Shown piece after piece: positions 17,885 to 62,751 of a stretch of DNA of 64,000 bases. The position numbers and the translations under genes were made by a program. A model generated the notes under the pieces. The model was not told the origin of the DNA. It saw only the letters and a list, made by a program, of their open reading frames with translations, and ran no database searches. The DNA lies in the NCBI GenBank assembly GCA_024413635.1, contig JAKSTT010000001.1:8433-72432 (forward strand). The letters are read 5' to 3'. Source of the DNA: Treponemataceae bacterium. GTDB taxonomy: Bacteria; Spirochaetota; Spirochaetia; Treponematales; Treponemataceae. Position 1 is the first letter of the stretch. The number at the start of each line of letters is the position of its first letter.

Positions 17885-17893
17885 GGACTACTC

Positions 17894-18487
17894 ATGAAGG
17901 CTGGAAAAATCAGTTCATTACCATTGGTGCTGGTGTTTTTCAGCCTTTTCTGTACTGGCTGTGCATCACGTGCTGCCAGTTGGATTGTTCCCAATGAACA
18001 GAAAGTCGTCATACAGAATCTGGCCAGTGAATATGCTTCTCTGGCAGATTCGTATGTAGAACTGAAAAAATACAGTAAGGCCGTTGAGTTCTATCAGAAA
18101 TCCCTGGCCATTGATTCTACCAACAACCAGACCATCTATTCCCTGGCAAAGGCCTACACCCTCAATAAACAATGGAATGAAGCAGAAAACCTGTACCGGT
18201 TGCTGCTTACGGCTGACCCAGAAAATACCACCTTCCAGTTATACCTGGCATATATCTATGCGCAGAAAGATGAATTTCAGAAAGCACTGGAACTGTATGA
18301 ATCCTTATACGAAAAAAATCCTCTGAATACCAATGTGCTGACCAATTACGGCCTTATCCTGGTACATGAAGGTAACCTGCAGAAAGCAGAACAGCTCCTT
18401 TCGGAGCTGCTGGTACTGAATGAATCAGGTGAAGGAACAAAAAAACTTTCTGATGCTGTCAAAAAGGCTCAGAGTTCTGAATCCTGA
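17894..18487 (+). CDS. TPR-repeat lipoprotein
   Basis: Lipobox LFCTGC, followed by four or five 34-aa TPR-like units (YSKAVEFYQKSLAID, WNEAENLYRLLLTADP, FQKALELYESLYEKNP). Confidence 0.7.
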   Translation: MKAGKISSLPLVLVFFSLFCTGCASRAASWIVPNEQKVVIQNLASEYASLADSYVELKKYSKAVEFYQKSLAIDSTNNQTIYSLAKAYTLNKQWNEAENLYRLLLTADPENTTFQLYLAYIYAQKDEFQKALELYESLYEKNPLNTNVLTNYGLILVHEGNLQKAEQLLSELLVLNESGEGTKKLSDAVKKAQSSES

Positions 18488-22840: not shown

Positions 22841-22845
22841 GAAGG

Positions 22846-23337
22846 TTATGCGGTCAGGTATTCATTGATACGTTCAAGACTGGTTTCCATTTCTGCCGGC
22901 TGGTAAAAATCATATTCACCTTCCTGGGGCAAAAGGAAAATGTAATCAAGGTGTAAGGATGGATTACTTACCCGGCGGATAATCAGCTGACGTATGTCAT
23001 TCCGGTCTTCCGGACAGAAAAGCTGCAGGTAATTGACCAGTTTCTCCCCACGGATACACAGCCAGTCTGTGTCATCAGAAAAGAGGGTTCCGTCCCAGAA
23101 ATCACGGGTGGAACAGGCGGTATCCAGGGAATCCGGCCGTATGCCCGCAGAACCTGCTACAGTGTAATGTGAACCTTCCGGTGTCAGAAGACAGAACCGG
23201 CTGTATCCGTAATCACGGGCAAACTGTTCAAAAAATGAAGCAGTTGTTTCCGGTTCCTGTTTCAATAGTGTTTCTGCTTTATGAAGAAGCCCTTCCGGCT
23301 TATGCGAAAGGGCTAGAATTCTTGAAAAAAGACCCAT
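22846..23337 (-). CDS. Hypothetical protein (163 aa)
   Basis: The ATG shares one nt with the TAA stop of the acidic protein gene (TAATG). No motif recognised. Confidence 0.5.
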   Translation of the reverse strand: MGLFSRILALSHKPEGLLHKAETLLKQEPETTASFFEQFARDYGYSRFCLLTPEGSHYTVAGSAGIRPDSLDTACSTRDFWDGTLFSDDTDWLCIRGEKLVNYLQLFCPEDRNDIRQLIIRRVSNPSLHLDYIFLLPQEGEYDFYQPAEMETSLERINEYLTA

Positions 23338-26300: not shown

Positions 26301-26540
26301 ATCGATGGTAAAGTCATCAGAGATAACTTCAGAAAAATCAGGCATTTCAGACAGTTCCGGTTCAACAGCCGGATCGTCGATAAAATCAAAGTCAGGAAGA
26401 TCAGCTACCAGGCTTTCGGCAGTGGTTTCCTCAACCGGTGTATCTGCAATGGGCGTTTCTTCATTGGCAGGCGCGGCTTTTTTTACCCATACGCCGTATT
26501 TTTCCAGTTCCTGAGAATCGTTTTCAAGTTCCAATGACAT
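23337..26540 (-). CDS. Hyper-acidic low-complexity repeat protein
   Basis: Start trimmed to ATG 26540 after AGGAG (MSLELENDSQELEKYGVWVKK). D/E/P/V/A/T-rich throughout, with many xDDF motifs. An internal heptad-like segment is present (NNALLEKILSELTSLKSEISSIRADVDNLKNQ). The C-terminal segment looks ordered (LMYMDQLLENLPEEKIAEFARSEHFDVYKKLFTELGLA). Confidence 0.7.
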   Translation of the reverse strand: MSLELENDSQELEKYGVWVKKAAPANEETPIADTPVEETTAESLVADLPDFDFIDDPAVEPELSEMPDFSEVISDDFTIDVPAVEDPAAEEQAAVEEPAVGEEPVTAEEPVAEESFIDESVFDIPLTEDTISEDISLDDFSIEEPVAEDIALDDFSIEESAADEPALDDFSIEESAADEPEITEEFSLDIPDMEETIAESDVPEMPDMPEMNADDIFAEEFSTEETVVEEPVVEETTVDTATDALDTPSFEEVALDDFDTPVAENPLEPEVSITPETPDMEMFGDVSFEDITLSVPETQDSTTPSADDFTLPTDDTSEISFDIDTTATEEVNIDDFLGLTDDMSSPAVSEELSFEDTGLRDFTTSESVSLDDFMSAPQEEKNDITNDDPLDIDLAFDDSFAGSTQASPEDSIETDMAAESAPDESFDVDDIFDSIQEVSFPGDETTEEPAVIPEGEEISFDEVNEFDDLLGSLNADSDQPSDHENAAAAPAQSFTPSKPEVRDYEMTVNMDDSDEDDEFDEASATVRAAVPAVEETPAEPAPEPELTESDVMSDDMKAVLAQLDEDFTEDTEITISQDSLDALTDVKEEPAMSETTNNALLEKILSELTSLKSEISSIRADVDNLKNQGVSAGPAPEAPADDSAEEDEIDFTPAEETSAGGFFGDEDGDDTISLSGDELDNILNCANFTEEEAPEITVEEPVMEEPSPAAEEEPVFGDDLAVEESAVEEPSFEEPVTDEAADDENQSFYEDADVADSNELTESFNSMEQPLEEPVIDEFAITESLMEDESEELPEEIEIPQMGDDFIVESSTTDFLDGMEEEKSIADSITDQNDSFLSSDENIDMMTEELGNEEEVLEVAANDPIDESEDLTESETETDATSSFPTEEDIGLAEEETFSVFDEDAPAEPSADSEYADEEIDTTPTEEVFGKEQWPAFDDMEETIIEMPSEEPVADEEPAVEEPVSEEEPAVEDEPVADEEPAVEDEPVADEEPAVEDEPVADEEPAAEGETSETDAAIPEDLKEDVKSVLMYMDQLLENLPEEKIAEFARSEHFDVYKKLFTELGLA
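23522..23629 (-). repeat. 3 x 36-nt perfect-frame tandem repeat (encodes EPAVEDEPVADE)
   Basis: Units at 23522, 23558 and 23594 are identical except at one position (g/c/t), which is a synonymous Pro codon. A degenerate fourth unit follows. Confidence 0.9.
26002..26091 (-). repeat. 2 x 45-nt tandem repeat (encodes LDDFSIEESAADEP-type unit)
   Basis: Units at 26002 and 26047 share their first 32 nt exactly, with 3 mismatches after that. A more diverged DDFSIEE unit follows. Confidence 0.85.
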
Positions 26541-26691
26541 AATCGCTCCTAATGTATCTGCTTTAAAAAGTATAGCACTCTTTTGCTTATACAGTATCGG
26601 CAAGATTTCCAATTTTTGCCACTTTTTTCTTGTCATATATATTTTCGCGTTAATCTCTGAAGAAAAATTTTCAGATGCCGAAAATGAGGAT

Positions 26692-40515: not shown

Positions 40516-42423
40516 TTATTTGAATGTAACCCATTCACCTTCAATGGTCAGGTACCAGGTACCATACGAGGTACTTGATGTTGCACTGAACCAGGAAAGG
40601 CTGCCGTCTTTGTTGAGGACCAGCAGGTGGGTGTCATTTACCGTCAGTTTTTCAGGAAGGGCCTTATACCGGTTGTAGGCAGTCTGCTTCCGTGAAGAAA
40701 CGGTAATGGAACGGATCTTATCCTGGGAAATGTTGGTATACAGCCGGCCATTGGTATAGTATACGAAGGCTTCGGTGTCTTCCTCAGGGAACGTAACGAT
40801 GGCCGAATATTTCTTGGTAGACGGCGTATAGGTGAAAATCTCTGTTTTTTCAGCCGGCGTCGAGAATACGGAAATACCGTAGAACGATTTTGTTCCGCCG
40901 GTGGTACTGCTGGAAAGAGAGAAACTTACTTCTGCGGTAACCGGCAGTGCCAGGGTTTCCTGTGTGGATACGTTTACTTCAATAAGGGCACTTTTGGGTG
41001 AAGAGGCTGCAGATTTTGCAACATACAGGGTGTTCTCGTCATACAGCAGGGCATCCTGTACACCGGTACCGGTATACAGTCGTTTTGAACTGTTTGTTTC
41101 AAATGAATACAGGGTTACCGTTGAACTGCCTTCTACCAGAACCATGGCGCCGTTTTCATAATGGATATTCATCAGGTTCAGGGAAGGGGTATAAATGGTA
41201 CGAAGGTTCCAGCCTTCTGATTCCTTTGCCTGGGCAACCGGTTTTTTCTGGTCTCTGGACCAGAAAAGCAGGGTATCTTCATCGATACGGAGAATATTGG
41301 TATAACCGGGATTTGTCATCAACGGTTCGTTTTCTTTTCCGTTAAAGGTGGTACGGATCAGACTTTTTTCTGAAAGGATATAGAAATCGTTTCCATTTTC
41401 AGAAATATCAAGGATCTTGTCATAGGGGTTCTGTGAGATACAGGTTGCCGCAGTCAGTACGGTATCACTGTCTTTGCTGACTGTCTGAATGGTACCATCG
41501 TCACAACCGGCATAAATATGGGTTCTGGTAGCAGTTGCCGTCACGATGGAAGGACGTTCTTCCGTGTAGAAGTTCCGTACAATGACAGAGTAGGAGGGTA
41601 CGGTAACACCCTCAATATCAACCATTTTCAGGGTATAGTTCTTGCCTTCCTGTTCAATGTAGTACAGGTCGGTATCAGAACGGAGGGTAACCAGCTGGGG
41701 TTTGTTTGCCCGGATCTTAGCCAGCAGTTTGGCGCTGTAGGCATGGTAAATCCAGATATAACCGTCCTTAAAGCCCGCAAACATCAGGTTATTGTTGAAC
41801 AGTACCGGCTGGTCCAGGTTTGCTTCTACGGAAAGTTCTGTTTTTGTTTCCTGGTTTTTCAGGTTTCCGTATACCAGATATCCCAGCTGTGAATAAAAAA
41901 CGCCGGAATTTTCTGTAGCACTGGTATATGCCATGGTGACCATGCTGGGTTTTTCCCGGATTTTTACGACAGTCTTGAGGGTAGAGGTATTGATGAACGA
42001 AATACCGTCTACGCCATTACTGCCTACCATCAGATAGGTACCGTTATCAGAGAACGACAGGCTGGTTACCGGATTGGGAAAACGTTTTGTCAGTTTGTTG
42101 GTCTTGGCTTTCCAGTCAAAAAGGCGGATGCGGTTAATGGAAAAACCGTCTGTTTCATAAATGGCAAGAAGATTTCCATCCGGGTGTACGGCAATGTCTT
42201 TAATCTCCAGATTTGACATCTGGTACCGTTCTCCCTCGCCATCAGTACTCCATCTGATGATGAAACTATCCTGTCCGACAGAGAATACTGCATCTGCTGA
42301 AGAAGCCATGGCAGTAACGTTGCCGGTATGGGGCTGCGTAGAATTTCTTGACTGTGCTGATACTGCTGAAACAGAAAGCAGCAGGACAGCAGCTGCAATG
42401 AATTTTTGTACTGTGTATTTCAT
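40516..42423 (-). CDS. Secreted beta-propeller (WD40-like) repeat protein
   Basis: Signal peptide AAVLLLSVSAVSAQ. Repeated ~40-aa units with HxG..TA....D..F and D..I..W patterns. Confidence 0.5.
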   Translation of the reverse strand: MKYTVQKFIAAAVLLLSVSAVSAQSRNSTQPHTGNVTAMASSADAVFSVGQDSFIIRWSTDGEGERYQMSNLEIKDIAVHPDGNLLAIYETDGFSINRIRLFDWKAKTNKLTKRFPNPVTSLSFSDNGTYLMVGSNGVDGISFINTSTLKTVVKIREKPSMVTMAYTSATENSGVFYSQLGYLVYGNLKNQETKTELSVEANLDQPVLFNNNLMFAGFKDGYIWIYHAYSAKLLAKIRANKPQLVTLRSDTDLYYIEQEGKNYTLKMVDIEGVTVPSYSVIVRNFYTEERPSIVTATATRTHIYAGCDDGTIQTVSKDSDTVLTAATCISQNPYDKILDISENGNDFYILSEKSLIRTTFNGKENEPLMTNPGYTNILRIDEDTLLFWSRDQKKPVAQAKESEGWNLRTIYTPSLNLMNIHYENGAMVLVEGSSTVTLYSFETNSSKRLYTGTGVQDALLYDENTLYVAKSAASSPKSALIEVNVSTQETLALPVTAEVSFSLSSSTTGGTKSFYGISVFSTPAEKTEIFTYTPSTKKYSAIVTFPEEDTEAFVYYTNGRLYTNISQDKIRSITVSSRKQTAYNRYKALPEKLTVNDTHLLVLNKDGSLSWFSATSSTSYGTWYLTIEGEWVTFK

Positions 42424-51339: not shown

Positions 51340-52467
51340 GTGCTTTTTAGATATACTCAAGATTCAAAGGGCAGACCGGTCAAGACGGCTGTCATTTACA
51401 CCAAAGAAGAACATTGCATAGACAATACTAAAATAGATTCTGACGCCCTGAAGATTATTACCCAGCTGCGGAGTTTCGGCTTTTCGGCATATCTGGTTGG
51501 CGGGGCAGTCCGTGACCTTCTGGTAGGCAATAAACCGAAAGACTTTGATATAGTAACCAATGCAACTCCTTCACGAATCAAGAAGATTTTCCGCAATTCA
51601 CGCATTATCGGGCGCCGTTTTCGTCTGGTGCATGTCTTTTTCGGCTCTACCATTTATGAAGTAAGCACCTTCCGTTCCATTTCTGACGGAACCGTGGGAA
51701 ACAATTTCGGAACAATAGAAGAAGACGTACAGCGCCGTGACTTTACCCTCAATGCACTGTATTACGACCCCATCAAGGAACAGGTCATCGACTACGTCGG
51801 TGGCGTCCGCGACATCCGTAAAGGGATCATCCGTCCGGTCATTCCGCTGGATACCATTTTTGTTGAAGATCCCGTACGCATGATCCGCGCGGTCAAATAT
51901 ACGGCTACAACCCATTTCAAGATGCCGTATTCCCTGCGCCATAAGATTACCAAGTCTGCGCACCTGCTTTCTCCGGTGTCACCTTCACGGCTTACCGAAG
52001 AACTGCTGAAAATCGTCAATTCTTCACATGCCTATGAAATTGTCCGCCTCTGTATGGAAACAGACGTATACATGTACCTGCAGCCGGCTGCAACGGGCAT
52101 GATGTACTCAAATCCAGATTTCCGTGATTCATACCTGAACCACCTGAAAGAGCTGGATGCCCTGAATGCTTCCGGTGCAGACGTCCGCCTGGGACAGAAA
52201 CTGTATTACCTGATTTATGATTTCATTGCCTGTCTTACTGACTGGGAAGCAGAATCCGTAAGTTCTGCCACCGGCGACCTGTACACGAAAACCTGGACCC
52301 AGTGCCGTAACTTCGTACTGCCCATGAATCCGCAGCGGACTGAACTGGAATATGCCATCAAAGCAGTGCTGAAAGACCTGGGCATTACCATCCGTATCCC
52401 GAAAGATGCCGTTGGCGGCAAGCGCAGACGGTTCGGTTTCCGCAAAAAGAGTGAATCTGAAAACTGA
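51340..52467 (+). CDS. Poly(A) polymerase / tRNA nucleotidyltransferase family protein (PcnB-like)
   Basis: YLVGGAVRDLLVGNKPKDFDIVTNATP class-II nucleotidyltransferase head, RDFTLNALYYD, and a basic C-terminal tail. GTG start, with no in-frame ATG nearby. Confidence 0.75.
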   Translation: MLFRYTQDSKGRPVKTAVIYTKEEHCIDNTKIDSDALKIITQLRSFGFSAYLVGGAVRDLLVGNKPKDFDIVTNATPSRIKKIFRNSRIIGRRFRLVHVFFGSTIYEVSTFRSISDGTVGNNFGTIEEDVQRRDFTLNALYYDPIKEQVIDYVGGVRDIRKGIIRPVIPLDTIFVEDPVRMIRAVKYTATTHFKMPYSLRHKITKSAHLLSPVSPSRLTEELLKIVNSSHAYEIVRLCMETDVYMYLQPAATGMMYSNPDFRDSYLNHLKELDALNASGADVRLGQKLYYLIYDFIACLTDWEAESVSSATGDLYTKTWTQCRNFVLPMNPQRTELEYAIKAVLKDLGITIRIPKDAVGGKRRRFGFRKKSESEN

Positions 52468-52488
52468 GGGAACTGACCGGTAACGGTA

Positions 52489-53346
52489 TCAGGTCATCAT
52501 GATTTTATCGATGATGATACTGACTTCTTCAATGAGGATACCGGTATATTTTTCGATGTTGTCGATGATGTATTTCTGCAGGTTGTGGATTGTTCCGGTC
52601 AACTGAGTGCCAAAGGGGACATCGATGGTGATGACGATGCGGTATCCCTGGGCATCCGTCTTGATGGACATTTTCTTTACCCGGATCTGGCTGTCATGTT
52701 CACTGACGCAGTGCAGGACCATCTGGGAAAGGGCTGCTTCTGAAATGGTAACCCGGCCTTTCTGGCTGAACTCCGGACGTACTACTGATTTTTCAAATAC
52801 TTTTCCGCTTTTTTTGTTCTTGCGGCTCAGGAATACCTGTACTTTGTTGTAGAAAATCTGAGGATAATTCTGCTGGATTTCGATGGCCGGTACCGGAATG
52901 ACATGTTTGCCTTCAATGCGGCGGGAACGGATAGCCTGATCAATTTCATCCTGCGTAGAAATATCTTCAATGCGGATGATTTTTGAAGGGGCTGGAATCT
53001 GCAGACGCATGGCAATTTTATTGACCATTTTTTCTGAAGTTCCCAGAATGAGGATTTTTTTGATGTCCTTTGCTTTTTTCAGCGCACGGGCAATTTCATC
53101 ACGATGTTCCTTGTCATCAAAAAGGGCAATGCGGACTGCTCCCAGAAAGGTCTTTTCTTTTTTTGCCGAGCGTCCGGCGACAATCTTGTCATCCTGAATG
53201 AGAAGTCCATCATCAATTATGGCGTCAATGGCATATTTCTGAGCCAGAAGCTTGGCACGGAAACTTTTTCCCGTACCGCTTTCGCCAACCAGTGCCATGA
53301 CAGAAACACCCTTTAATTTCCAAACAATATCTTTTACCAGGTTCAT
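52489..53346 (-). CDS. P-loop NTPase domain fused to Asp23/Gls24-like domain
   Basis: Walker A VGESGTGKS, followed by AIIDDGLLI. The C-terminal ~100 aa (VTISEAALSQMVLHCV...IVITIDVPFGTQL...NLQKYIIDNIEKYTGILIEEVSIIIDKI) resemble the Asp23 family. Confidence 0.55.
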   Translation of the reverse strand: MNLVKDIVWKLKGVSVMALVGESGTGKSFRAKLLAQKYAIDAIIDDGLLIQDDKIVAGRSAKKEKTFLGAVRIALFDDKEHRDEIARALKKAKDIKKILILGTSEKMVNKIAMRLQIPAPSKIIRIEDISTQDEIDQAIRSRRIEGKHVIPVPAIEIQQNYPQIFYNKVQVFLSRKNKKSGKVFEKSVVRPEFSQKGRVTISEAALSQMVLHCVSEHDSQIRVKKMSIKTDAQGYRIVITIDVPFGTQLTGTIHNLQKYIIDNIEKYTGILIEEVSIIIDKIMMT

Positions 53347-53348
53347 AC

Positions 53349-54368
53349 TCAGTCCGTAGTTATATTGTAGGGCTGAAGTGTGAAAAAATCAATTTTCTGG
53401 CGGTTTTCTCCATCAAAGTTTGCGGCGATGAACGTCTTGAAGGCCTCTGGAAGGGGAGCCCGGATTTCTTCGGGAATATCAAGACTGGTATCCGGGGGGA
53501 AACTGAGGGTCAGGGCATGGAGGAAGAAATCCTGGGATGCTTTGATTGCCGGTCCTCCATAAGCGGTATCACCCAGCAGAGGGTATCCGTGGGCGGCACA
53601 CTGGCTTCTGATCTGGTGGGTACGGCCGGTGAGGATCCTGATGACGGCAAAGGTTAGGGGATTTCCCTTATGGCTGCCGGTGGCGATGGGGTGTACCATG
53701 GTAATCGATTCTTTTCCTTCAGGTCCTGCGCTTTCAGAAACGGATACGGTATGAAATCCTTTAGGAGTATGGTCATCCTGATCTGCTTTTGTGATGAAGT
53801 CTGTCCAGGTTTCGTCATGGTCAAGGACACCCGAAAGCAGGGCAACGTAGGTTTTAGTAACTTCATGACTCTGGATCAGTTCCGAAAAGGTACGGGCACC
53901 GGTCAGGTTCTGTGAAAAACAGAGTACACCGGTAGTTTTTTTATCCAGACGGTGCAGGGGCCCCGGATTGAATGAAAGGGAATGATCTTCGGGACGGTAA
54001 CGGGTCCGGATAATGTCATCAAGGGACAACTGTCCTTTCTGCGCTTTCTGCACCGGAATGTCATAGGGCTTGTTGATGACCAGCAGCTGGCTGTTGCGGA
54101 AAAGAATCTCAAGTTCCCTTCCATCGTCACCGGGTTCCGTATCCTTTCTGCTGCCATCGGGATGAACGAGGAACTCTGCTACGGATATGACATCATGTTC
54201 CTGAATCCGGTAATTCTGGGCTGTTTTCTTGTCATTGATACGGATCAGACCTTTCCGGATTGCCTTGTACAGTTCTCCTAATTCCGTGTCCGGAAGGAAT
54301 GTGCGGAGTACCCGGTCAAGCCGTCTGTCCCGGTCGTTGGGACCTGTTTCATATTGCAAAAATCGCAT
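53349..54368 (-). CDS. RluA-family pseudouridine synthase with S4-like N-terminal domain (RluD/RluC-like)
   Basis: RLDRVL...IRINDKK S4-like region, HRLDKKTTGVLCF catalytic motif, and GRTHQIRSQCAAHGYPLLGDTAYG. Start trimmed to ATG 54368 (MRFLQYE). Confidence 0.8.
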   Translation of the reverse strand: MRFLQYETGPNDRDRRLDRVLRTFLPDTELGELYKAIRKGLIRINDKKTAQNYRIQEHDVISVAEFLVHPDGSRKDTEPGDDGRELEILFRNSQLLVINKPYDIPVQKAQKGQLSLDDIIRTRYRPEDHSLSFNPGPLHRLDKKTTGVLCFSQNLTGARTFSELIQSHEVTKTYVALLSGVLDHDETWTDFITKADQDDHTPKGFHTVSVSESAGPEGKESITMVHPIATGSHKGNPLTFAVIRILTGRTHQIRSQCAAHGYPLLGDTAYGGPAIKASQDFFLHALTLSFPPDTSLDIPEEIRAPLPEAFKTFIAANFDGENRQKIDFFTLQPYNITTD

Positions 54369-54392
54369 AATCCCTATACTATTTTTAGTATC

Positions 54393-54872
54393 ATGTCCGG
54401 TCAAGCAAGTTTCGATATTCATGAACTGTTAACTAATCCAGTATTTCTCTCGCTCGTTTTCAGCTGGTTTTCGGCACAGTTCATCAAGACATTAATCAGT
54501 CTTCTGACCGGTAAAATCCATTCCATCAGTGAACTGTTCAACAGCCTGATCTGGCGTACCGGCGGCATGCCGTCCAGCCATTCTGCCCTGGTGGTGTCAC
54601 TGGCAACCTCAGTCGGGTACCGGAATGGGTTCAATTCTGACATCTTTCTGCTGGCACTGGCGTTTGCCATGGTAACGGTGCGTGATGCCCTTGGTGTCCG
54701 CCGCTCTACCGGTATTCAGGCCCATGCCATCAACGAAATCGGTGAAAAACTGGCATTAAAGAATCTGTTGGATTTCAGTAGAATTAAAGAAGTACACGGG
54801 CATAAGCCTTTTGAAGTGATTATGGGATGTTTCCTCGGGTTATGTATCGGGGTAGCTTTCTCAGCACTTTGA
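54393..54872 (+). CDS. Divergent PAP2-family (DUF212) membrane protein
   Basis: GGMPSSHSALVVSLAT and VRDALGVRRSTG motifs. Start trimmed to ATG 54393. Confidence 0.8.
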   Translation: MSGQASFDIHELLTNPVFLSLVFSWFSAQFIKTLISLLTGKIHSISELFNSLIWRTGGMPSSHSALVVSLATSVGYRNGFNSDIFLLALAFAMVTVRDALGVRRSTGIQAHAINEIGEKLALKNLLDFSRIKEVHGHKPFEVIMGCFLGLCIGVAFSAL

Positions 54873-54890: not shown

Positions 54891-56366
54891 ATGATGAATA
54901 CCGCCTCTAAAGCCGCACTTTCGTTCTTCTCCGCATGCTGTCTGCTGGCAGCCGCCTGTGCGTTACGCGTTGTTCCTTCTGCCCGCATCTGGTCAGGGTA
55001 TCAGGTGGTATTTTTCCCCAACAGCCAGGATCTTTCTTTTCTGAATGAATCGTCAATAGGGGATCTGTTCCCCGGACTTGTATCAGATGAAACCTCCTGT
55101 CGCAGTGACGCCGTTACGCCTCCTGATTTTACGGTGGCAGAGTCTGTGTATCACGGCATGTATATTCCGGTTATGGACCCTTTTAACCGCGACGGATATA
55201 CCTCTGATACCATCCGCAGCTTCTTTTTTTCTGACCGTGAGGGCAATTACCGTCTGGTGTACGTGCCTGATGCCCATTTCCGGTCCTTCTGTTCCCTGCT
55301 TGATTCAAAAAAAATACCCTATGGAACGGACAGCACGGTAAAAGTGCCCTATGGCGGTGCACTGACGGTGCTGGTTCTTGCGCTGGTGCTGGTCATTCTG
55401 GTACGCGTACGCTGGCAGCGTCTGATCATGCTGGTGCCGGTCTGTACCATGGCATTCCTGGCACCCTGGTATGCCGTCAGCTGTACGGCATGTACGGTGC
55501 TGGCACTTGTTCCATTCATCAACCGGTACTGGAACCGGGTGCAGGGGGGCAGACTGTTCATCAGGAATCCCCTGTGCATCGTGTTTCTGGTACTGCTTGC
55601 CGGCCTTCTGGTACTGACGCCACCCCGGCCGCTGCTGGTATCCCTGCTGTGTCTTTCTTCATCTGCCTGTTTTGGTTTTGCCGTGCGGATGCAGGAGCAG
55701 TGGGCTGCCGGTACCCGGCATTTTTCCTTTACGCCCATTATCTCAGGCCGGTTTGTGACCGTTGATGAACGGCAGAAAGGTGGTGCTGCAGTTCTGTACA
55801 GCCTTTCCGTACTGGTATTGCTCAGCCTGTCGCTGTTTTCTACGGTGGGCGGCAGTCTGTCTGACCGGCAAGACTTGAGTCTGCCGGGACCTAACCGGTA
55901 TACTGATTCCATTACGTCTGTTGATGGCTGGAATGCATTTGCTGACGGCCAGGATGAGGTGCGGTACCCTGATATTACTGATTTCGTTGCAGAATTGTGG
56001 CAGCGTCAGTCCTATGGATTCCGCCGGATTTCACAGCGTAATGACCTGTTTCCGCAAAAAGGAAGCGCCGTAACGGTATCCCACTTTGTTGAAGATGCTG
56101 ACGGCGTACATGTAATACAAAAAGATGTTCTTGTGTTTGATGATACGTATCTGAACCGGAGTATGGAATGGCTGCGTGAACATGATTCAGTGGCTGCATT
56201 CCTGCTGCAGGGAAATGCTACGGCATCAACAACGTACACTACTACAGGAGCATTTACCGTTACAGCTGCAGATTATGCAGGAATACTTGCCTGTATTACT
56301 GTGGCAGCTGGTCTGTGCATGGTGCTGGTTATCAGACGTGCCAGACAGAGGAGCTCTGAAAAATGA
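54891..56366 (+). CDS. Hypothetical polytopic membrane protein
   Basis: 491 aa. N-terminal signal/TM helix, an ~130-aa loop, 5-6 central TM helices, an ~150-aa soluble segment and a C-terminal TM helix. The stop overlaps the next start (ATGA). Confidence 0.55.
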   Translation: MMNTASKAALSFFSACCLLAAACALRVVPSARIWSGYQVVFFPNSQDLSFLNESSIGDLFPGLVSDETSCRSDAVTPPDFTVAESVYHGMYIPVMDPFNRDGYTSDTIRSFFFSDREGNYRLVYVPDAHFRSFCSLLDSKKIPYGTDSTVKVPYGGALTVLVLALVLVILVRVRWQRLIMLVPVCTMAFLAPWYAVSCTACTVLALVPFINRYWNRVQGGRLFIRNPLCIVFLVLLAGLLVLTPPRPLLVSLLCLSSSACFGFAVRMQEQWAAGTRHFSFTPIISGRFVTVDERQKGGAAVLYSLSVLVLLSLSLFSTVGGSLSDRQDLSLPGPNRYTDSITSVDGWNAFADGQDEVRYPDITDFVAELWQRQSYGFRRISQRNDLFPQKGSAVTVSHFVEDADGVHVIQKDVLVFDDTYLNRSMEWLREHDSVAAFLLQGNATASTTYTTTGAFTVTAADYAGILACITVAAGLCMVLVIRRARQRSSEK

Positions 56367-57670
56367 CCGATGTTCATGCACTGCATATACCGGTGCCGGG
56401 TGTTACTGCCATAACGGATGCCTGGATACCTCATACTGTTCATATTCCCCTGTATTGCCGCGAGTCTGACGGCCTTACGTTTCCTGAGCCGGGCACCGTG
56501 GTGCAGGAAGGCCAGGTATTGAAGGCCGCTGAAAACGGTCATCCTGCCGTTATGTCTTCGGTACCGGGGGTGATTACCGGATACCAGGAATTTCCCCTGT
56601 ATGACGGGGGCAGAAGTCTGTATGCCATCATCAGGACTGAAGGTGCCTTTACCTATTTTGGCCGGGGACGCACGAAAAAGACCGTTGAAACGTTAACGGC
56701 CCTTGAGTTAAGCGGTATCCTCAATACCCACGGCGTATACAACACCTTTGACCACTCGGTTCCCTTTGCGGATCAGGTACGGCCGTTCCAGCGGCAGATC
56801 CAGATTGATGAAGAAGATTCCCACGGAAAATCCGTAACGGTTCTGGCCGTGCGGCTTTTTGACGAAGATCCGGTCAGTATTGCCGGTTCGGTGTTTTCAG
56901 AACACTATTTCGACCTGATTTCCGAAGGTATCAGGATTGTAACTGAAGTAATCCACGCTTCGTATGTGTATATATTCTATCCGGCCGGCAGTGCCTTTTT
57001 TGAGGAAGGCCACACTATTGACGGTATGACGGCAAACCTGCAGTTCCTGCCGGTTTCCCTTGATACGTATCCCTGCGGCCGTGAACGGGACCTTCGGAAA
57101 CAGCTGAAAAAGGCTGGTTTTTCCCATGCTGATGACCATATCCTCTTTACGGACGGCCGTACCATGTACGCAACGGCCCTTGCTGCCGTGTATGACCAGC
57201 CGGTACTTGAAACGCTGGTGCAGATCAGTGGTTCAGCCCTCAGTAAAGACCGGCTCTTTAAGGTGCGGAACGGAACTCCCATTGGAGAACTGGCTGCCCA
57301 GTGTGGCGGCTTAAAGCATCTGCCGCAGAAGATTATCGTCAACGGGCTGGTCCGCGGGTATGCGGTGGCTGATCCCCAGGTGCCGGTTACGCCACAGGTT
57401 GTCTGTGTTACGATTCCGGCAAAATCAGATATACCGGATCAGCGGGAACTTAACTGTATCCGCTGCGGACGGTGCCATCGTTCCTGCGCAGCCGGTATTC
57501 ATCCTGATAAAATGCTCTTTTTCTACAGCCGGCATCAGAAAATGCCGGAACGTCTTGAAAAACTGATCTGGCAGTGCAATGACTGCCGGGAGTGCAATAC
57601 GGCCTGTCCGGCCCGGCTCCCGCTGGCCCAGACCATCATGCTGTTACGGGAGGAACTCTCTCATGAATAA
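56363..57670 (+). CDS. RnfC-like iron-sulfur subunit (divergent)
   Basis: 435 aa. C-terminal CIRCGRCHRSC and CNDCRECNTACP 4Fe-4S motifs, and first position in a C-D-G-E-A-B-ordered cluster. No GGxGFP-type nucleotide motif seen. Confidence 0.5.
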   Translation: MTDVHALHIPVPGVTAITDAWIPHTVHIPLYCRESDGLTFPEPGTVVQEGQVLKAAENGHPAVMSSVPGVITGYQEFPLYDGGRSLYAIIRTEGAFTYFGRGRTKKTVETLTALELSGILNTHGVYNTFDHSVPFADQVRPFQRQIQIDEEDSHGKSVTVLAVRLFDEDPVSIAGSVFSEHYFDLISEGIRIVTEVIHASYVYIFYPAGSAFFEEGHTIDGMTANLQFLPVSLDTYPCGRERDLRKQLKKAGFSHADDHILFTDGRTMYATALAAVYDQPVLETLVQISGSALSKDRLFKVRNGTPIGELAAQCGGLKHLPQKIIVNGLVRGYAVADPQVPVTPQVVCVTIPAKSDIPDQRELNCIRCGRCHRSCAAGIHPDKMLFFYSRHQKMPERLEKLIWQCNDCRECNTACPARLPLAQTIMLLREELSHE

Positions 57671-58700
57671 AGCCATTAAAAAAGTTTCGCTGGCTCCTTA
57701 CTGCTATTCAATACCTTCAGTGCATGAAACTGCCCGGTTAACCTGTTTCCTGCTGCTTCCCCAGGTGCTGATGCTGGTGCTGACTGCCAGTTACCGGTCT
57801 CTGGCTGTTCTGGGGGTAGCACTGCTTGCCGGTCATGCGGCTCAGCTCAGCGACACCTTCTTCAGAAAACAGAAATATGTGTTCTCCTGGGATGCCGTTC
57901 TGCAGGCGCTGCTGATCGGACTGTTCATTCCATCCGGATACCCGCTGTGGTGGCTGTTCCTGATTGTGCTGTGCAGTCTCCTGGTATGTAAGTATACCTT
58001 TGGCGGCTTTGCACAGTCCTGGGCAAATCCGGCTGCCTTTACCCTGATCATGCTGTACCTGTTTGGTTCCCAGTGTTTCCCCGGCTTTATTGCCGACATT
58101 GAACACCTGCAGAGCCCCAATGCAGTTCCGCTGCTGGTTCGTGACGGACTGATTCCCCTGAACCGGTTTGATTCGGTAGTGACTGGTTTCCTTAACGAAA
58201 AACTGCTGGTAAAAGCAGGAATTACCGTACCTGACGGTTATGTTTCACTCATGCTTGATGCGGGCGGTCCCATTCCTGCATTCCGCTTTAACCTGCTGAC
58301 CCTTATTGCCAGCATTGTGCTGTTTTCTTCAAATATGATAGAACCGCTGATACCTACCGTATATCTGCTTGGCTATGGTGCCCTGGTCCGCTATTTCGGT
58401 CTGTATCCCTACGGTGGCCTTCTGAATCAGGGTGACATCCTGCTGGCTCTCTTTTCCAGCGGTACCCTGATTACGGCGTTTTTCCTGCTGCCCTGGGGAG
58501 GAACGGTACCCATGAGTATTCCCGGAAAGTTCCTGTTTGCCCTGTTTGCCGCCATTATGGCCGCTGTGGTAAACGGCTTTGGTACCTCTCCCATCGGGTC
58601 CATGTTTGTCATCCTTGCTGCCAATGTGTTCTCTCCGGCCATTCAGTGCATTGAAGACGCTTTGTACTACGGCATGCTTGATAAAAGGAGGGCTTCATGA
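57663..58700 (+). CDS. RnfD/NqrB-family membrane subunit (divergent)
   Basis: LLIGLFIPSGYPLWW...KYTFGGFAQSWANPAAF and LITAFFLLPWGGTVP...FVILAANVFSPAI match the RnfD core. Start trimmed to ATG 57663 (MNKAIKK), an 8-nt overlap with the upstream gene. Confidence 0.65.
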   Translation: MNKAIKKVSLAPYCYSIPSVHETARLTCFLLLPQVLMLVLTASYRSLAVLGVALLAGHAAQLSDTFFRKQKYVFSWDAVLQALLIGLFIPSGYPLWWLFLIVLCSLLVCKYTFGGFAQSWANPAAFTLIMLYLFGSQCFPGFIADIEHLQSPNAVPLLVRDGLIPLNRFDSVVTGFLNEKLLVKAGITVPDGYVSLMLDAGGPIPAFRFNLLTLIASIVLFSSNMIEPLIPTVYLLGYGALVRYFGLYPYGGLLNQGDILLALFSSGTLITAFFLLPWGGTVPMSIPGKFLFALFAAIMAAVVNGFGTSPIGSMFVILAANVFSPAIQCIEDALYYGMLDKRRAS

Positions 58701-59188
58701 CAAAAGAAGATAAACAGATTATCCACCGGTACGGCAGTTTCAGCCTGATTCTTCTGGTCATGTTTTTCTCACTGTTCATCTTTGTAAAGCTTGACCGTTC
58801 AGTGTGGAACCGTGGCCTGGAAACAGTAGTAAACCAGGTGCTTGCGGCAAATGACAATACCGGGGACCTGACGGTGCTTGGAACTGTTCCGTTTCCCAGC
58901 ACCATGGCATCTTCGGCAGCCATGTATCTGGTAGGAAAAAATACTGTAGTAGAGGGCTATGCCATTATTGTCCGGATGACGGGACCTTCTGGTCCGGTAA
59001 GCGGCGTATTTTATACTAAAAATTCCCAGCAGCCTCCTGTTTTCCTGGGGACTGCTGATACCTTCAGCCGTACTGGAAACCGCAGGATCAACCGGATTGT
59101 TACCTGCAATAACCTGCAGCTGACTACGGCCCAGATTTCCTTCTGGTCGGATAAAGCTGCTGCCCTGTTTCGGGAGGTTCTTGAATGA
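58697..59188 (+). CDS. Single-pass membrane protein in the RnfG position
   Basis: 163 aa with an N-terminal TM helix. ATGA overlaps on both sides. GYAIIVRMTGPSGPVSGVF weakly resembles the RnfG GYxGxI segment. No S/TGAT motif. Confidence 0.35.
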   Translation: MTKEDKQIIHRYGSFSLILLVMFFSLFIFVKLDRSVWNRGLETVVNQVLAANDNTGDLTVLGTVPFPSTMASSAAMYLVGKNTVVEGYAIIVRMTGPSGPVSGVFYTKNSQQPPVFLGTADTFSRTGNRRINRIVTCNNLQLTTAQISFWSDKAAALFREVLE

Positions 59189-59793
59189 AAAACTATCACT
59201 ATCCCTTCCTGTTTATCGGCGCACTGCTTTCACTGCTGGTTCCCTGTCCGGCACGGTTTGGATATGTACTGCTGGTTGTCATGGCTGCAGATCTGCTTAT
59301 GATTCTGGGTACCGGCATGCGTATTGCCGTTGACAGCCTGCATCTGAATGAACTGGGCTCCATTATGATGCTGGTGTTCCTGGTATTTACCACAATCCTC
59401 ATTAAACAGTTTATTATTCTGTACTCACCGGTTATTGCCATGACCCTCAGTTTTGTCCTGTACCTGGTGCCAGTATCTGCAATCATCATTGGCCGCACGG
59501 TTGCCAGCGAACAGATGCAGTGGAAGGCATACTGTATTTCCAACCTGCAGGTTCTTGGCGTTTTTACCGGTACCTGTCTTGCCTTTGGCTTTGTACGGGA
59601 ACTGATTGCGTACGAAAGCATTTCACTGCCAGCCCACAGCGGATTATGGATCATTCCGGTGAATATGCATGGCCTCATCAAGGCTACTGCCTTCTGGGGG
59701 TCCATCCCCGGTGCCTTTATCCTGCTGTCCCTTATCCTGGCGTTCATGTCACTGGTTCAGCGGCGGTTCAACATTATCAGGAGTAAAGACTGA
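59185..59793 (+). CDS. RnfE/RnfA (Rnf-Nqr) family membrane subunit, E-like
   Basis: 202 aa, about 6 TM helices. LLVPCPA, GFVRELIAYESISLP and GSIPGAFILLSL resemble Rnf-Nqr family blocks. Confidence 0.55.
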   Translation: MKNYHYPFLFIGALLSLLVPCPARFGYVLLVVMAADLLMILGTGMRIAVDSLHLNELGSIMMLVFLVFTTILIKQFIILYSPVIAMTLSFVLYLVPVSAIIIGRTVASEQMQWKAYCISNLQVLGVFTGTCLAFGFVRELIAYESISLPAHSGLWIIPVNMHGLIKATAFWGSIPGAFILLSLILAFMSLVQRRFNIIRSKD

Positions 59794-60350
59794 TGGCATT
59801 ACGTTCTCTGTATTTTTACATGCTGTTTACCTCTGCCGTCTTCATGTACGGCATCGGCATCCGCAAGGTTGTTGTCGTATCAAATAACATTACCCATTAC
59901 CTGGCGTGGTTTTCCAGAACACTGGTAACAACCATGAGTATCATTTGTGCCGTATGGTTTATTGCTACAACTTTTCTCAGTCCCTATGGCCTGATGGAAC
60001 TGTTTCCTTTTTTTGCCGTCATCGTCTGTGTACTGATCAGCCAGCTGACCTATGAGTTGTGGAACCTGCTTTCAAAACTGGATACCCCGGAATTTGCACT
60101 GACATTCTGCACGGTTATTCTTGCCGTAGGTGAGGGGACATCCTTCATCGATTCCCTGGCCATCGGTCTTTCCAGTATTCTTGCCTTTTACCTGGGAGCA
60201 CCGCTTCTGTACACGTTCAGATGGCGCATGCAGTACAGCGATTCCAATATCGTATTCCGCGGCGGGGCCCTGGTGTTTTTCAGTATCGCCGTAATGCTTA
60301 TCGTACTCTTCGGCATCAATATTTCATGGCTTAATTTCGGGGCATTCTGA
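59793..60350 (+). CDS. RnfA/RnfE (Rnf-Nqr) family membrane subunit, A-like
   Basis: 185 aa, about 6 TM helices. LTFCTVILAVGEG and RGGALVFFSIAVMLIVLFG resemble RnfA blocks. TGATG junctions on both sides. Confidence 0.5.
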   Translation: MALRSLYFYMLFTSAVFMYGIGIRKVVVVSNNITHYLAWFSRTLVTTMSIICAVWFIATTFLSPYGLMELFPFFAVIVCVLISQLTYELWNLLSKLDTPEFALTFCTVILAVGEGTSFIDSLAIGLSSILAFYLGAPLLYTFRWRMQYSDSNIVFRGGALVFFSIAVMLIVLFGINISWLNFGAF

Positions 60351-60892
60351 TGGTTTTTTCTGTTATCCTCTGTATCTGCATTCTGATTATTTTTGTCGGC
60401 GTCCTCTTTTTCATGGAAACTGAGGGGGGCTGGAATTTTACTGCCGTGTTCTCCAGTGATGAAATTGATGACCGCAATGAACAGCCTGCCGGGCCGAAAG
60501 TAGAAAAAGGTTCATCAATTGCAGTGGTTGCTGTGGCAGACGGTGAAACAAAAGCTGATGCAGTGTATCAGAATATGCTGGACTGTCATGTGCTGACCAG
60601 AGCCTATGAAATAACTCCCTACGGAGGTGCCGTTCAGTGCTGTGGATACGGCAGCTGTGTTTCGGTGTGTCCCCAGAACGCCATTTCGCTGGTAAAGGGA
60701 ACTGCCGTTATCGGTGAAACCTGTAATGGCTGTGGCCGTTGTGTCGATAATTGTCCGCTCCATCTTATATCTTTGCAGAAACCTGAACAGGAATCTGCAA
60801 AAAAACTGAGTTTCTGGTTTAAATTTTGGAAATTCTGGTTTACCATTTTAAGACGCGACCAAGCTGACGGTTCTAAAGCATTATGGGAATAG
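60350..60892 (+). CDS. RnfB-like membrane-anchored ferredoxin-domain protein
   Basis: N-terminal TM helix, then CCGYGSCVSVCPQNAI and CNGCGRCVDNCP. Last position of the Rnf-like cluster. Confidence 0.5.
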   Translation: MVFSVILCICILIIFVGVLFFMETEGGWNFTAVFSSDEIDDRNEQPAGPKVEKGSSIAVVAVADGETKADAVYQNMLDCHVLTRAYEITPYGGAVQCCGYGSCVSVCPQNAISLVKGTAVIGETCNGCGRCVDNCPLHLISLQKPEQESAKKLSFWFKFWKFWFTILRRDQADGSKALWE

Positions 60893-62751
60893 TACATATA
60901 TGCCAGGTTGTTTCATTTGAAATACCTGGGCTTTTTACTGCTGCTAAAGCAGAAGAGTATTATAAAAAAGTAATTAAAGATTCTCTTGCCTATATCTGTG
61001 CGCATCCCCAGTATGTGGTTTCTTTGTGCTTTACCGGCGATTTGCTGAGCTGGCTGGAGCAGTTCCATCAGGAAGTGTTTCTGGTTCTTTCAGAGCTTTC
61101 CCAAAATCATCAGATAGAATGTATTTCTTCCGGATATACCAATCCGCTGTTTCCGCTGCTGCTGCCCGTTGACCGCTCCGGTCAGATTGACAAGCAGACC
61201 ACGCTGCTCAGGAAAATTACCGGCAAGCGTTCCCGCGGCTTAAAAATGGCCTGCGACTGCTGGGAACAGTCTTTGATCCCCAGTTTTAAGACTGCCGGTG
61301 TTGAATATGTACTCCTGAAAAATGACCTTTTCATCAAGAATTTCCAGAAACAGCTGGATGGCTTCCGGCCGCATCTGGTTGAAGAGTGCGGTAAGTCACT
61401 GATTCTTGTTCCGTATACGACTATGGCTGATATTGGCGACTGGCTGCAGAGTTCCTACAGCCAGCTGACTGCACAGCCCTATGATACCCTGTTTTCCCAG
61501 CTGTTGAGTGGAGAACAGTTTATCCGGAACGTAAAGGACGGTATCTGTGACCGGCTGTTTGACTGGTGTGCCGGTCAGCCCCAGGCAGATTTGAATACGC
61601 CGGCTGTTGTTACCCGCCTTACCTCAGGTTTTATCAAAACGTATGTACCGCCTGTGTGGAACGGCAATGCCCGCCACGTACGGGAAGTAATCAACACGAA
61701 TACCAGCATCCGGCAGCTGTACGCCCGCATGATTCAGTTAAGCGGAGAAGTAAATCAGTTCCGCGGTGATAAGACACGGAAAAATGCTGCCCGCGAAGAG
61801 CTGTGGAAAGCCCAGAATTATCAGATGTACTGCGGTATTGAAGGGGATGAACTGGAACAGTTTGCCCAGCAGCAGGCTGCATACCGGCATATTCTGGCCG
61901 CCGAAAAAATCATGGGAGATCTTTCAGGAACTCCTGCCACCAGCATTACCAGTTTTGACTTTGATTTTGACGGGCTTGATGAGTATGCCTGCCACTTTAC
62001 CGAATACAATGCCTATATCCGGCTGCAGGGCGCATCTCTTTTTGAACTGGATTCCCGCAACAGCTGTCAGATGTATACCCTGTGCAGCAGTCCTGGAGAA
62101 TCGCTGCCCCAGCGGACCGTGTTCAACGACTTCCTGCTGGATGATGAAAGCTTTTCTGCTTTCCAGAACTGCAATTATCCCTATACCCGGACCTCCCATG
62201 ACATTCATTTTGAGGTTGCTTCTTTCCAGCGCTCAAAACGTGAAATCGTTTTTCTGGGGAAGGGGCGTTTCGGTAAGAAAAAATTGCCCTACAGCTTAAA
62301 GAAACGGTATGTATTCTCTGATAACGGGGTACAGGTTACCTATATCCTGAAAAATGAATCCCAGTCTACGCTGAAGGGCCACTTCCTGGTAGAAAATACC
62401 CTGGCAGTCCCGTACCGTGAAACTGATAAACGGGAAATTGCCGTAGTTTCCAATGATGTGATGGTAAAGCCGGTAACCGGACAGGTATTCTGGAAGAACC
62501 GCGATGTGTCTACGGTACAGATTACGGATACCGTAACGGAAACGTCCTTTATCCTGGAAACCAATGAAAACGCCAGCCTGCAGATTCAGCCTCTGTTCTT
62601 TGAAAAAGAATGTGTTGCGTCAACCTGCGGATTTTTCTGGGATTTTGACTTACCCGGCCAGTATGAAACGGAAAAGACCCTGTTCCTGACCATCAGGACC
62701 CCCACAAAAGCCAGTCTGGGGAAAAAACGGGGACGCAGGAAAACGTCCTAG
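60883..62751 (+). CDS. GH57-like (alpha-amylase / 4-alpha-glucanotransferase family) protein, probable non-catalytic variant
   Basis: NHQIECISSGYTNPLFPLLL matches GH57 region II. GLKMACDCWEQSLIP and TTMADIGDW align by eye to regions III and IV, but without the Glu and Asp. 10-nt overlap with the upstream gene. Confidence 0.5.
   Translation: MGIVHICQVVSFEIPGLFTAAKAEEYYKKVIKDSLAYICAHPQYVVSLCFTGDLLSWLEQFHQEVFLVLSELSQNHQIECISSGYTNPLFPLLLPVDRSGQIDKQTTLLRKITGKRSRGLKMACDCWEQSLIPSFKTAGVEYVLLKNDLFIKNFQKQLDGFRPHLVEECGKSLILVPYTTMADIGDWLQSSYSQLTAQPYDTLFSQLLSGEQFIRNVKDGICDRLFDWCAGQPQADLNTPAVVTRLTSGFIKTYVPPVWNGNARHVREVINTNTSIRQLYARMIQLSGEVNQFRGDKTRKNAAREELWKAQNYQMYCGIEGDELEQFAQQQAAYRHILAAEKIMGDLSGTPATSITSFDFDFDGLDEYACHFTEYNAYIRLQGASLFELDSRNSCQMYTLCSSPGESLPQRTVFNDFLLDDESFSAFQNCNYPYTRTSHDIHFEVASFQRSKREIVFLGKGRFGKKKLPYSLKKRYVFSDNGVQVTYILKNESQSTLKGHFLVENTLAVPYRETDKREIAVVSNDVMVKPVTGQVFWKNRDVSTVQITDTVTETSFILETNENASLQIQPLFFEKECVASTCGFFWDFDLPGQYETEKTLFLTIRTPTKASLGKKRGRRKTS

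Follow-up and report, generated by a model that had tools for sequence, protein, structure and literature searches.

The six genes at positions 56363-60892 (+ strand) of a 64,000-nucleotide (nt) stretch of the Treponemataceae bacterium contig JAKSTT010000001.1 (referred to below as the window) encode proteins that resemble the subunits of the Rnf complex, the ion-translocating ferredoxin:NAD+ (nicotinamide adenine dinucleotide) oxidoreductase. On the evidence of its sequences, this rnf-like cluster is a real, lineage-wide and cofactor-depleted Rnf variant of the Treponemataceae, from which nearly all the canonical carriers of the electron path across the membrane appear to have been lost together. 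The Cys ligands for cytoplasmic [4Fe-4S] clusters are kept everywhere in the RnfC-like protein and in most lineages in the RnfB-like protein. The canonical ferredoxin-to-NAD+ pathway would not be possible for such a complex, and the missing sites point to a function other than ferredoxin:NAD+ oxidoreduction. Given that the losses strike both the donor and the acceptor at each step, they would reflect a real change in function and not alignment noise. The identity of the cluster as the Treponemataceae form of Rnf, and the conclusion that it is not canonical, are considered fairly probable; the mechanism proposed below is graded lower.

Homology of the encoded proteins to Rnf subunits

Family alignments were built from related loci and then used in profile searches against solved structures. 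The loci were collected by a scan of one genome per species, in which relatives of the D protein were found in at least 266 genomes; the family counts given throughout were taken from the best 80 of 266 loci, with n varying from protein to protein.

The homology to Rnf proposed in the initial annotation, which had been made from the sequence alone, is supported by significant profile matches for C, D, A and B. The RnfC-like soluble subunit C (56363-57670, + strand; 435 amino acids (aa)) scores 120 bits against TIGR01945, and its profile matches the full length of RnfC in 7ZC6 (7zc6_C, residues 21-430) with an E-value of 6e-72. The single sequence of D (57663-58700, + strand; 345 aa), an RnfD/NqrB-like subunit with 10 transmembrane (TM) helices, scores 133.6 bits against PF03116 (cut-off 27.7); the D profile matches 9eri_D with an E-value of 1.3e-19, in an alignment confined to profile positions 7-129 and 213-346. 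B (60350-60892, + strand; 180 aa) is an RnfB-like, TM-anchored ferredoxin. Its single sequence scores as a generic two-cluster ferredoxin, and its profile matches 9eri_B (E = 9e-32) and 7zc6_B (E = 2.7e-29), in both cases over RnfB residues ~95-206 only. For A (59793-60350, + strand; 185 aa), an RnfA-like six-helix membrane subunit, profile matches were obtained to 8ahx_A (E = 2.7e-8), 7zc6_A (1.3e-7) and NqrE (3e-3). Judged by these searches, C, D, A and B are certain homologues of Rnf subunits.

E (59185-59793, + strand; 202 aa) is an RnfE-like six-helix membrane subunit with weak RsxE and rnfE matches. Its profile matched three RnfE PDB chains at E = 0.3-1, and the window protein alone matched rnfE at E = 0.037 and RsxE at E = 0.069, the single-sequence matches of A and E together lying at ~0.01-0.07. 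RsxE was the sole NCBIfam family to recur for E, being matched by 5 of 39 members with a best E-value of 2e-4. Although similarity was expected from the paralogy of RnfA and RnfE, a profile comparison of the E-like and A-like proteins gave a result that was not significant. The assignment of E as an Rnf homologue is probable. No subunit reaches its NCBIfam cut-off: the scores and cut-offs are 120 versus 246 bits for C, 69 versus 207 for D, 34.5 versus 68.7 for B, 14-16 versus 229-240 for A and 13.6 versus 213 for E, and G gave no match.

The RnfG-position protein G (58697-59188, + strand; 163 aa) has a single TM helix and was assigned by predicted fold and position. Neither single-sequence nor profile searches gave a Pfam, NCBIfam or PDB match, and only 283 cluster representatives, all of its own family, came back from an exhaustive profile search among 1.84 billion. 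The 150 matches listed of these 283 are mostly ~150-200 aa in length, and the named entries looked up were all Treponema or Spirochaetia proteins annotated as "hypothetical protein." An AlphaFold2 model of G, computed with 144 sequences (predicted local distance difference test score of 85), consists of a TM helix, a linker helix, a beta-rich domain and a terminal helix. When this model was compared with 350,542 PDB chains by Foldseek, the top five matches were RnfG chains of all three solved Rnf complexes, with probabilities of 0.89-0.92 and E-values of 0.03-0.11 that fall short of formal significance. On the basis of predicted fold and gene position, it is plausible that G is an RnfG homologue.

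Flavin and NADH sites of C, D and G

The carriers of canonical Rnf comprise FdI and the polyferredoxin clusters of RnfB, a [2Fe-2S] centre held by four Cys residues of RnfA and RnfE, flavin mononucleotide (FMN) on a Thr of RnfG, FMN on a Thr of RnfD, riboflavin, and two [4Fe-4S] clusters plus FMN in RnfC (PMC12174285, PMC9588780). The mobile FdI domain of RnfB feeds electrons to the A/E centre, and Asp248 of RnfD (Clostridium tetanomorphum) is strictly conserved at the riboflavin/Na+ site (PMC9588780).

C retains all the RnfC domains, with two [4Fe-4S] motifs, CIRCGRCHRSC and CNDCRECNTACP. The eight Cys residues C365, C368, C371, C375, C405, C408, C411 and C415 show no variation among 39 aligned sequences, four of which come from B-less loci. 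Across the C family, the Gly-rich loop of RnfC that binds FMN and reduced NAD+ (NADH) is replaced by G-V-x-N-T-F-x-x-x-x-(S/P); in the window, the canonical GIVGMGGATFP aligns without a gap with GVYNTFDHSVP. A second segment of the NuoF-like FMN/NADH site of RnfC, NAAECEP (N-A-x-E-C-E-P in general form), is replaced by R-L-F-D-x-D-P. The absence of the Gly-rich segment, noted by eye in the initial annotation, is therefore confirmed by full-length alignment and by a scan for G.GG..FP, which is present in 0 of 75 C members. The replacement residues are themselves near-invariant: N127 is found in 70 of 75 members and T128 and F129 in 74, and at the second site R164, D167 and D169 are found in 74, 73 and 71 of 75, respectively. 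Such conservation suggests that the pocket of C has taken on a new ligand rather than decayed.

The N- and C-terminal halves of D align to RnfD, whereas the central periplasmic loop is family-specific and carries the highly conserved motifs FD..(I/V)T.FLN, PDGYVSL.WD and IPAFRFN. This is the loop expected to carry the flavinylated Thr, and no alignment of it to canonical RnfD was possible. The strict ApbE flavinylation motif, D-x-x-[ST]-G-A-[ST], occurs in none of the 80 D members, and its relaxed form, D-x-x-[ST]-[AGS]-[AS]-[ST], is absent from ~580 proteins of the eight families; [ST]GAT, GAT and the ApbE motif are likewise missing from all eight proteins of the window. The claim that D reads QSPNAVPLL where SGATPL is expected is thus correct in that D has no such motif, but the position given for the replacement is approximate, since the loop is not alignable. 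In the aligned part of D, the column of RnfD Asp248 holds Trp in 70 of 80 members and the Asn90 column is hydrophobic, whereas Asn124 and the FGG...NPA motif are retained.

Within the D loop, the segment FDSVVTGFLNE (window 58140-58200) has a conserved Asp (76 of 80), Thr (75 of 80) and Asn (80 of 80) and does not fit the ApbE motif. Lying roughly at the loop position of the canonical flavinyl-Thr, the D-x-x-(I/V)-T-x-F-L-N sequence could be a cryptic modification or ligand site.

For G, the FMN_bind family was found in 0 of 38 members scanned. No conserved Thr marks the beginning of the terminal helix, where the residue varies, and the alignment-free motif search agrees with the earlier observation that the G-position protein has no GAT tripeptide.

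Intramembrane Cys residues and the RnfB-like protein

In A, the first canonical Cys column holds Asn, Lys or Glu. The second holds Cys in 23 of 77 members, and the adjoining column (Cys106) in 8 of 77, the window protein among them. An invariant Glu, E114, matches the conserved N-E of RnfA. In E, the first Cys column (Cys21, in VPCPA), placed tentatively by means of its CP motif, holds Cys in 4 of 78 members, including the window protein but not its closest relative (L001); the second canonical column holds Ser, Val or Ala. Two Arg residues of E, R24 and R138, are invariant or nearly so. The initial annotation had suggested that half of the A/E Cys ligands are kept. Both Cys residues are indeed present in the window, but they are not conserved in the family and are best described, from these alignments, as lineage relics and not as conserved ligands.

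The B protein corresponds to residues ~95-206 of clostridial RnfB (the FdII core) joined to a TM anchor, with eight Cys residues invariant in the family. It has no PF04060 match, and the segment equivalent to RnfB residues 35-95, the mobile FdI domain, is missing. The extra Cys motifs of most members suggest at least three clusters, compared with two in the window lineage. At four loci, B is a stub (L020:3453-3959, L030:5290-5781, L049:5177-5542 and L066:6073-6405) consisting of a TM helix and an FKFW..CY tail with no Cys motif. Seven further loci have no B gene, for example those of Treponema sp. OMZ 840 and T. parvum (oral group) and of Treponema sp. HNW. In the absence of B, the H gene begins within the stop codon of A (compare L078:9156-11683 and L079:9219-11731). 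B is thus missing or without Fe-S ligands in 11-12 of 80 loci, and its loss has probably been stepwise and repeated. Given that the Cys residues of C are invariant in an alignment that includes four B-less genomes, electron entry via RnfB is dispensable to the function of the complex.

Overall, the description of the complex as Rnf-derived and cofactor-depleted is upheld, and the depletion goes deeper than had been proposed: in addition to the losses already recognised, Asp248 is replaced by Trp, FdI is missing, and none of the A/E Cys residues is conserved.

Conservation and organization of the locus

The best 80 loci are nearly all labelled Treponemataceae or Treponema and come from gut, rumen and oral sources; the exceptions in label are one Desulfovibrionaceae and one entry given only as "bacterium." The order U-C-D-G-E-A-B-H, in which U and H are the genes that flank the six described above, is kept together with its tight junctions in essentially all of these loci. 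As an alternative to a paralogous complex, the initial annotation had allowed for a very divergent, lineage-specific Rnf, and this description is supported by the occurrence of the same gene order in at least 266 species genomes, nearly all of them Treponemataceae or Spirochaetia. In comparison with the closest relative, the ratio of nonsynonymous to synonymous substitution rates (dN/dS) is 0.07-0.17 for the eight genes (0.15 for U), values that are rough because dS is saturated. All eight genes are under purifying selection.

The coordinates, sizes, quoted motifs, + strand orientation and 1-8-nt overlaps first given for the six open reading frames (ORFs) are all correct, as is the order C-D-G-E-A-B. 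The conserved unit is nevertheless larger than a six-gene cluster and is best written DUF212-U-C-D-G-E-A-(B)-H. The overlaps at the U/C, C/D, D/G, G/E, E/A, A/B and B/H junctions are 4, 8, 4, 4, 1, 1 and 10 nt, respectively, that of U and C being ATGA. In the window, the rnf-like genes are in translational coupling with both U and H. The D ORF could be extended in frame by 28 codons into the end of C (57579-57662). Its actual start is the ATG at 57663, from which a 345-aa protein is read that agrees with the homologues and is 100% matched by an entry in the database.

U (54891-56366, + strand; 491 aa) is a polytopic membrane protein with no Pfam or NCBIfam match and no conserved Cys motif. Its hydropathy profile shows an N-terminal hydrophobic segment, a hydrophobic block at approximately residues 150-325 and a C-terminal TM segment. 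It is present in 69 of 80 loci, always directly before C. Upstream, a DUF212 (divergent PAP2) membrane protein (54354-54872, + strand; 172 aa; PF02681, E = 1e-40) is encoded on the same strand, with its stop codon 18 nt before the start of U. This gene is the immediate upstream neighbour of U at 67 of 80 loci and may be the first of the transcription unit; since the wider upstream region is syntenic as well, such proximity is by itself a weak argument for a partnership.

H (60883-62751, + strand; 622 aa), a cytoplasmic GH57-like protein, is encoded in 68 of 80 loci, after B or, where B is missing, after A. It matches PF03065 (E = 2.9e-17) and PF09095 (E = 1.4e-13), corresponding to a partial GH57 barrel and an AmyA/4-alpha-glucanotransferase C-terminal domain. 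Catalysis in GH57 enzymes depends on a nucleophile Glu and an acid/base Asp. The match of H to the Thermococcus litoralis 4-alpha-glucanotransferase (1K1W) covers the N-terminal GH57 barrel segment (E = 5e-12). In the window protein, Cys occupies the column mapped to the Glu123 nucleophile of the T. litoralis enzyme; across the family, this column holds Gly, Asn, Ser, Glu, Ala or Asp, Glu being found in 6 of 67 members. The Pfam GH57 match of H ends at model position 208 of 291, and the acid/base region is not recognisable. H therefore shares the barrel segment and the AmyA-type C-terminal domain with the T. litoralis enzyme but has no conserved nucleophile, and it is probably a pseudo-enzyme and not a glycosidase.

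Downstream of H in the window lies metG. Upstream, a block encoding a PcnB-like protein, a 285-aa protein, an RluA-like protein and the DUF212 protein (51340-54872) is syntenic in most of the family, whereas metG is not; the rnf-like cluster lies in an unusually stable segment of the Treponemataceae chromosome. In a promoter scan of the region, promoter-like sites were no commoner than in shuffled sequence. Between 54000 and 63200, 22 terminator-like hairpins with T-runs were counted, compared with 9.2 ± 3.2 in shuffled sequence, mostly within coding regions. The excess probably stems from base composition, the coding strand of membrane-protein genes being rich in T (AT skew of approximately -0.2).

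Comparison with Rnf, Na+-NQR and the Treponema pallidum operon

The cluster has the same six subunit types as the Rnf complexes of C. tetanomorphum, Acetobacterium woodii and Azotobacter vinelandii (7ZC6, 9ERI and 8AHX), in the clostridial order. Shared with the solved complexes are the complete RnfC architecture with two [4Fe-4S] clusters, the RnfD helices, the RnfA Glu, the FdII core of RnfB, and the layout of G as a TM helix, a beta domain and a terminal helix. By contrast with those complexes, C is devoid of the Gly-rich FMN/NADH loop, D and G have neither a flavinylation Thr nor an ApbE motif, A and E have no conserved Cys, and B has no FdI; Trp replaces Asp248, a hydrophobic residue replaces Asn90, and the conserved genes U and the GH57-like H are additional. 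A 2025 review of RNF and NQR makes no mention of spirochetes (PMC12174285).

Na+-NQR has a homologous membrane core (NqrB/D/E/C). NqrA is an RnfC homologue that has been stripped of its cofactors (PMC12174285) and so provides a precedent for a cofactor-less C-type subunit, although the C-like protein, unlike NqrA, keeps its Fe-S domain. Na+-NQR also differs in keeping the [2Fe-2S] centre, both covalent FMNs, riboflavin, and NqrF as the entry point for NADH; no NqrF gene is present in the rnf-like cluster.

In T. pallidum, the co-transcribed genes tp0147-tp0153 have been described as a "noncanonical Rnf" (Deka et al. 2015, PMC4436053). In that study, TP0152 was assigned as RnfC, TP0151 as RnfD, TP0149 as RnfE-like and TP0148-0150 as membrane proteins, which include those at the G and A positions; RnfB was tentatively put at the first position, TP0153; no flavinylation motif was found; and the operon was described as the only Rnf-type system of the organism (PMC4436053). 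Later papers continue to depict it as a flavodoxin:NAD+ pump that works with flavins (PMC7512555, PMC11717252). In number, order and assigned identities, the seven genes correspond to U-C-D-G-E-A-H, the B-less form found in relatives of the window cluster. Given this agreement in gene order, gene count and published assignments, the B-less cluster is apparently the same operon as tp0153-tp0147. T. pallidum was absent from homologue searches made with D, with G and with the G profile, and 20 G-family representatives that were looked up gave other Treponema species only. The arrangement described here departs from the published assignment in that the first gene encodes a Cys-poor polytopic membrane protein and that the RnfB homologue, if present, follows A. 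If the orthology holds, then TP0153 would not be RnfB, and the real RnfB, whose gene comes after A in most treponemes, would have been lost in the T. pallidum-type arrangement, which fits the statement that T. pallidum has no ferredoxin (PMC7512555). Under the same proviso, the T. pallidum operon would also be without the NADH/FMN site, the RnfD Asp, FdI and the ligands of the A/E cluster, and its last gene would encode a dead GH57 protein. The core idea, that Treponema has an Rnf of noncanonical type devoid of flavinylation motifs, was already published in 2015. The present analysis adds the further site losses: those in the RnfC loop, the A/E Cys residues, RnfD Asp248 and RnfB FdI, and the pseudo-GH57 protein, were not reported (PMC4436053).

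Interpretation

These observations are best accommodated by a model in which an Rnf-derived membrane machine would be built on the D/A/E/G core. Here, the pocket of the RnfC-like Fe-S subunit that once held FMN, now remodelled (N-T-F and R-L-F-D-x-D-P), would accept another ligand or partner, B would serve as an optional point of electron entry, and the complex would couple to or sense the cytoplasmic redox state with no ion pumping by flavin-mediated transmembrane electron transfer. It is tentatively proposed, as a possibility that falls short of an even chance, that the Treponemataceae, probably including the syphilis agent, have turned the Rnf pump into a machine without flavins, intramembrane Fe-S or an NADH site, and have recruited to it a polytopic membrane protein and a dead GH57-like protein.

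Several points weigh against the reading of the cluster as a cofactor-depleted, non-canonical Rnf with such a mechanism. The invariant [4Fe-4S] Cys residues of C and of most B proteins indicate that electron transfer still matters. Flavin may be bound non-covalently or by new residues, for which the Trp of D that replaces Asp248 and the invariant loop Thr are candidates, and FMN could come in trans from a flavinylated protein whose gene lies elsewhere; in T. pallidum, the TP0171 lipoprotein is flavinylated by Ftp (PMC4436053). The assignments of E and G draw on weak sequence or fold evidence together with gene position, and the orthology with tp0153-tp0147 follows from gene order and count and not from sequence. 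The literature searched holds no biochemistry for any member of the family, nor does it report ferredoxin:NAD+ activity for any Treponema. Finally, general synteny of the region may account in part for the conserved positions of U and H. Given that PcnB, the 285-aa protein and RluA are also syntenic, adjacency alone is no proof that U and H are subunits, and the argument for their subunit status from conserved neighbourhood is weakened by the synteny of the unrelated PcnB and RluA.

Much of the same evidence bears on whether the complex is still a working ion-translocating ferredoxin- or flavodoxin:NAD+ oxidoreductase with non-covalent, cryptic-site or trans-supplied flavins, in keeping with the "noncanonical, flavin-based RNF" drawn for T. 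pallidum. Retention of all six subunits under purifying selection, the invariant Fe-S Cys residues of C and B, and the invariant Thr of the new periplasmic loop of D (75 of 80) would all be expected of such a pump, and T. pallidum, despite its genome reduction, keeps and transcribes apparently the same operon and has a flavin-trafficking system (PMC4436053, PMC7512555). However, the NADH/FMN loop of C is absent in 75 of 75 members, the cluster has no ApbE motif, RnfD Asp248 is replaced by Trp, the intramembrane cluster has no Cys ligands, the FdI donor of RnfB is missing, and B itself is lost or Fe-S-less in 11-12 of 80 loci, so that a working pump would require five or six independent rescues and is considered rather unlikely. 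It appears more doubtful still that the cluster is a specialised paralogue acting beside a canonical Rnf or Nqr that does the bioenergetic work, the reading put forward in the initial annotation. T. denticola is reported to have an Nqr-type system with a flavinylatable NqrC, and some treponemes thus do have a canonical relative; in T. pallidum, by contrast, this is the only Rnf-type cluster described (PMC4436053). In the window, neither a second rnf or nqr gene nor one for ApbE turned up among the ~40 ORFs scanned, a set that leaves aside 6-794 and the three ORFs at 16817-19767, and the paralogous part of the earlier interpretation is unsupported. That the missing motifs are alignment artefacts, or that the genes are decaying pseudogenes, is scarcely credible, even though E and G are barely detectable by sequence: misalignment is ruled out by the alignment-free motif searches and by the confident full-length alignment of C across the loop, and decay by intact ORFs in ~80 genomes, the dN/dS values of 0.07-0.17 and the many invariant residues.

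In the Rnf and Nqr complexes, the transmembrane path of the electrons is regarded as strictly conserved. A family variant reduced to the scaffold would be a natural experiment on the role of that scaffold in the absence of electron transfer, and would exemplify a respiratory complex put to new use. Models of T. pallidum bioenergetics from 2015 to 2025 use a flavin-based RNF pump for ATP supply and motility. If the orthology holds, the operon should be unable to act as such a pump without several unknown substitutes, and doubt is cast on the energy-conserving role given to apparently the same operon in syphilis research. Were the proposed Rnf-derived, cofactor-depleted machine to prove correct, treponemes with no other Rnf or Nqr, such as T. 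pallidum, would have no redox-driven ion pump, and the "flavin-based RNF" model of energy conservation in T. pallidum would be wrong. Hypotheses that can be tested in cultivable treponemes arise from the conserved partners, U and H, and from the repeated loss of RnfB.

Other features of the window

The other genes of the window are ordinary chromosomal ones and include rpsB, tsf, frr, uppS, dxr, dnaB and ppdK, together with a gene for a TP0453-type lipoprotein typical of Treponema. The 285-aa protein mentioned above (52489-53346, - strand) has a P-loop-like GESGTGKS sequence and no Pfam match, and its gene adjoins the RluA-like gene in 55 of 80 loci. A 635-aa protein with eukaryote-like WD40 beta-propeller repeats is encoded at 40516-42423 (- strand), between the gene for an RseP-type M50 protease and ssb. 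At 19788-26636 (- strand), two neighbouring genes encode MptE-like (PF01973) proteins of 494 and 523 aa, beside which lie ORFs of 163 and 1099 aa with no Pfam match; this gene group may be a cluster of the glycosylation or motility-accessory type.

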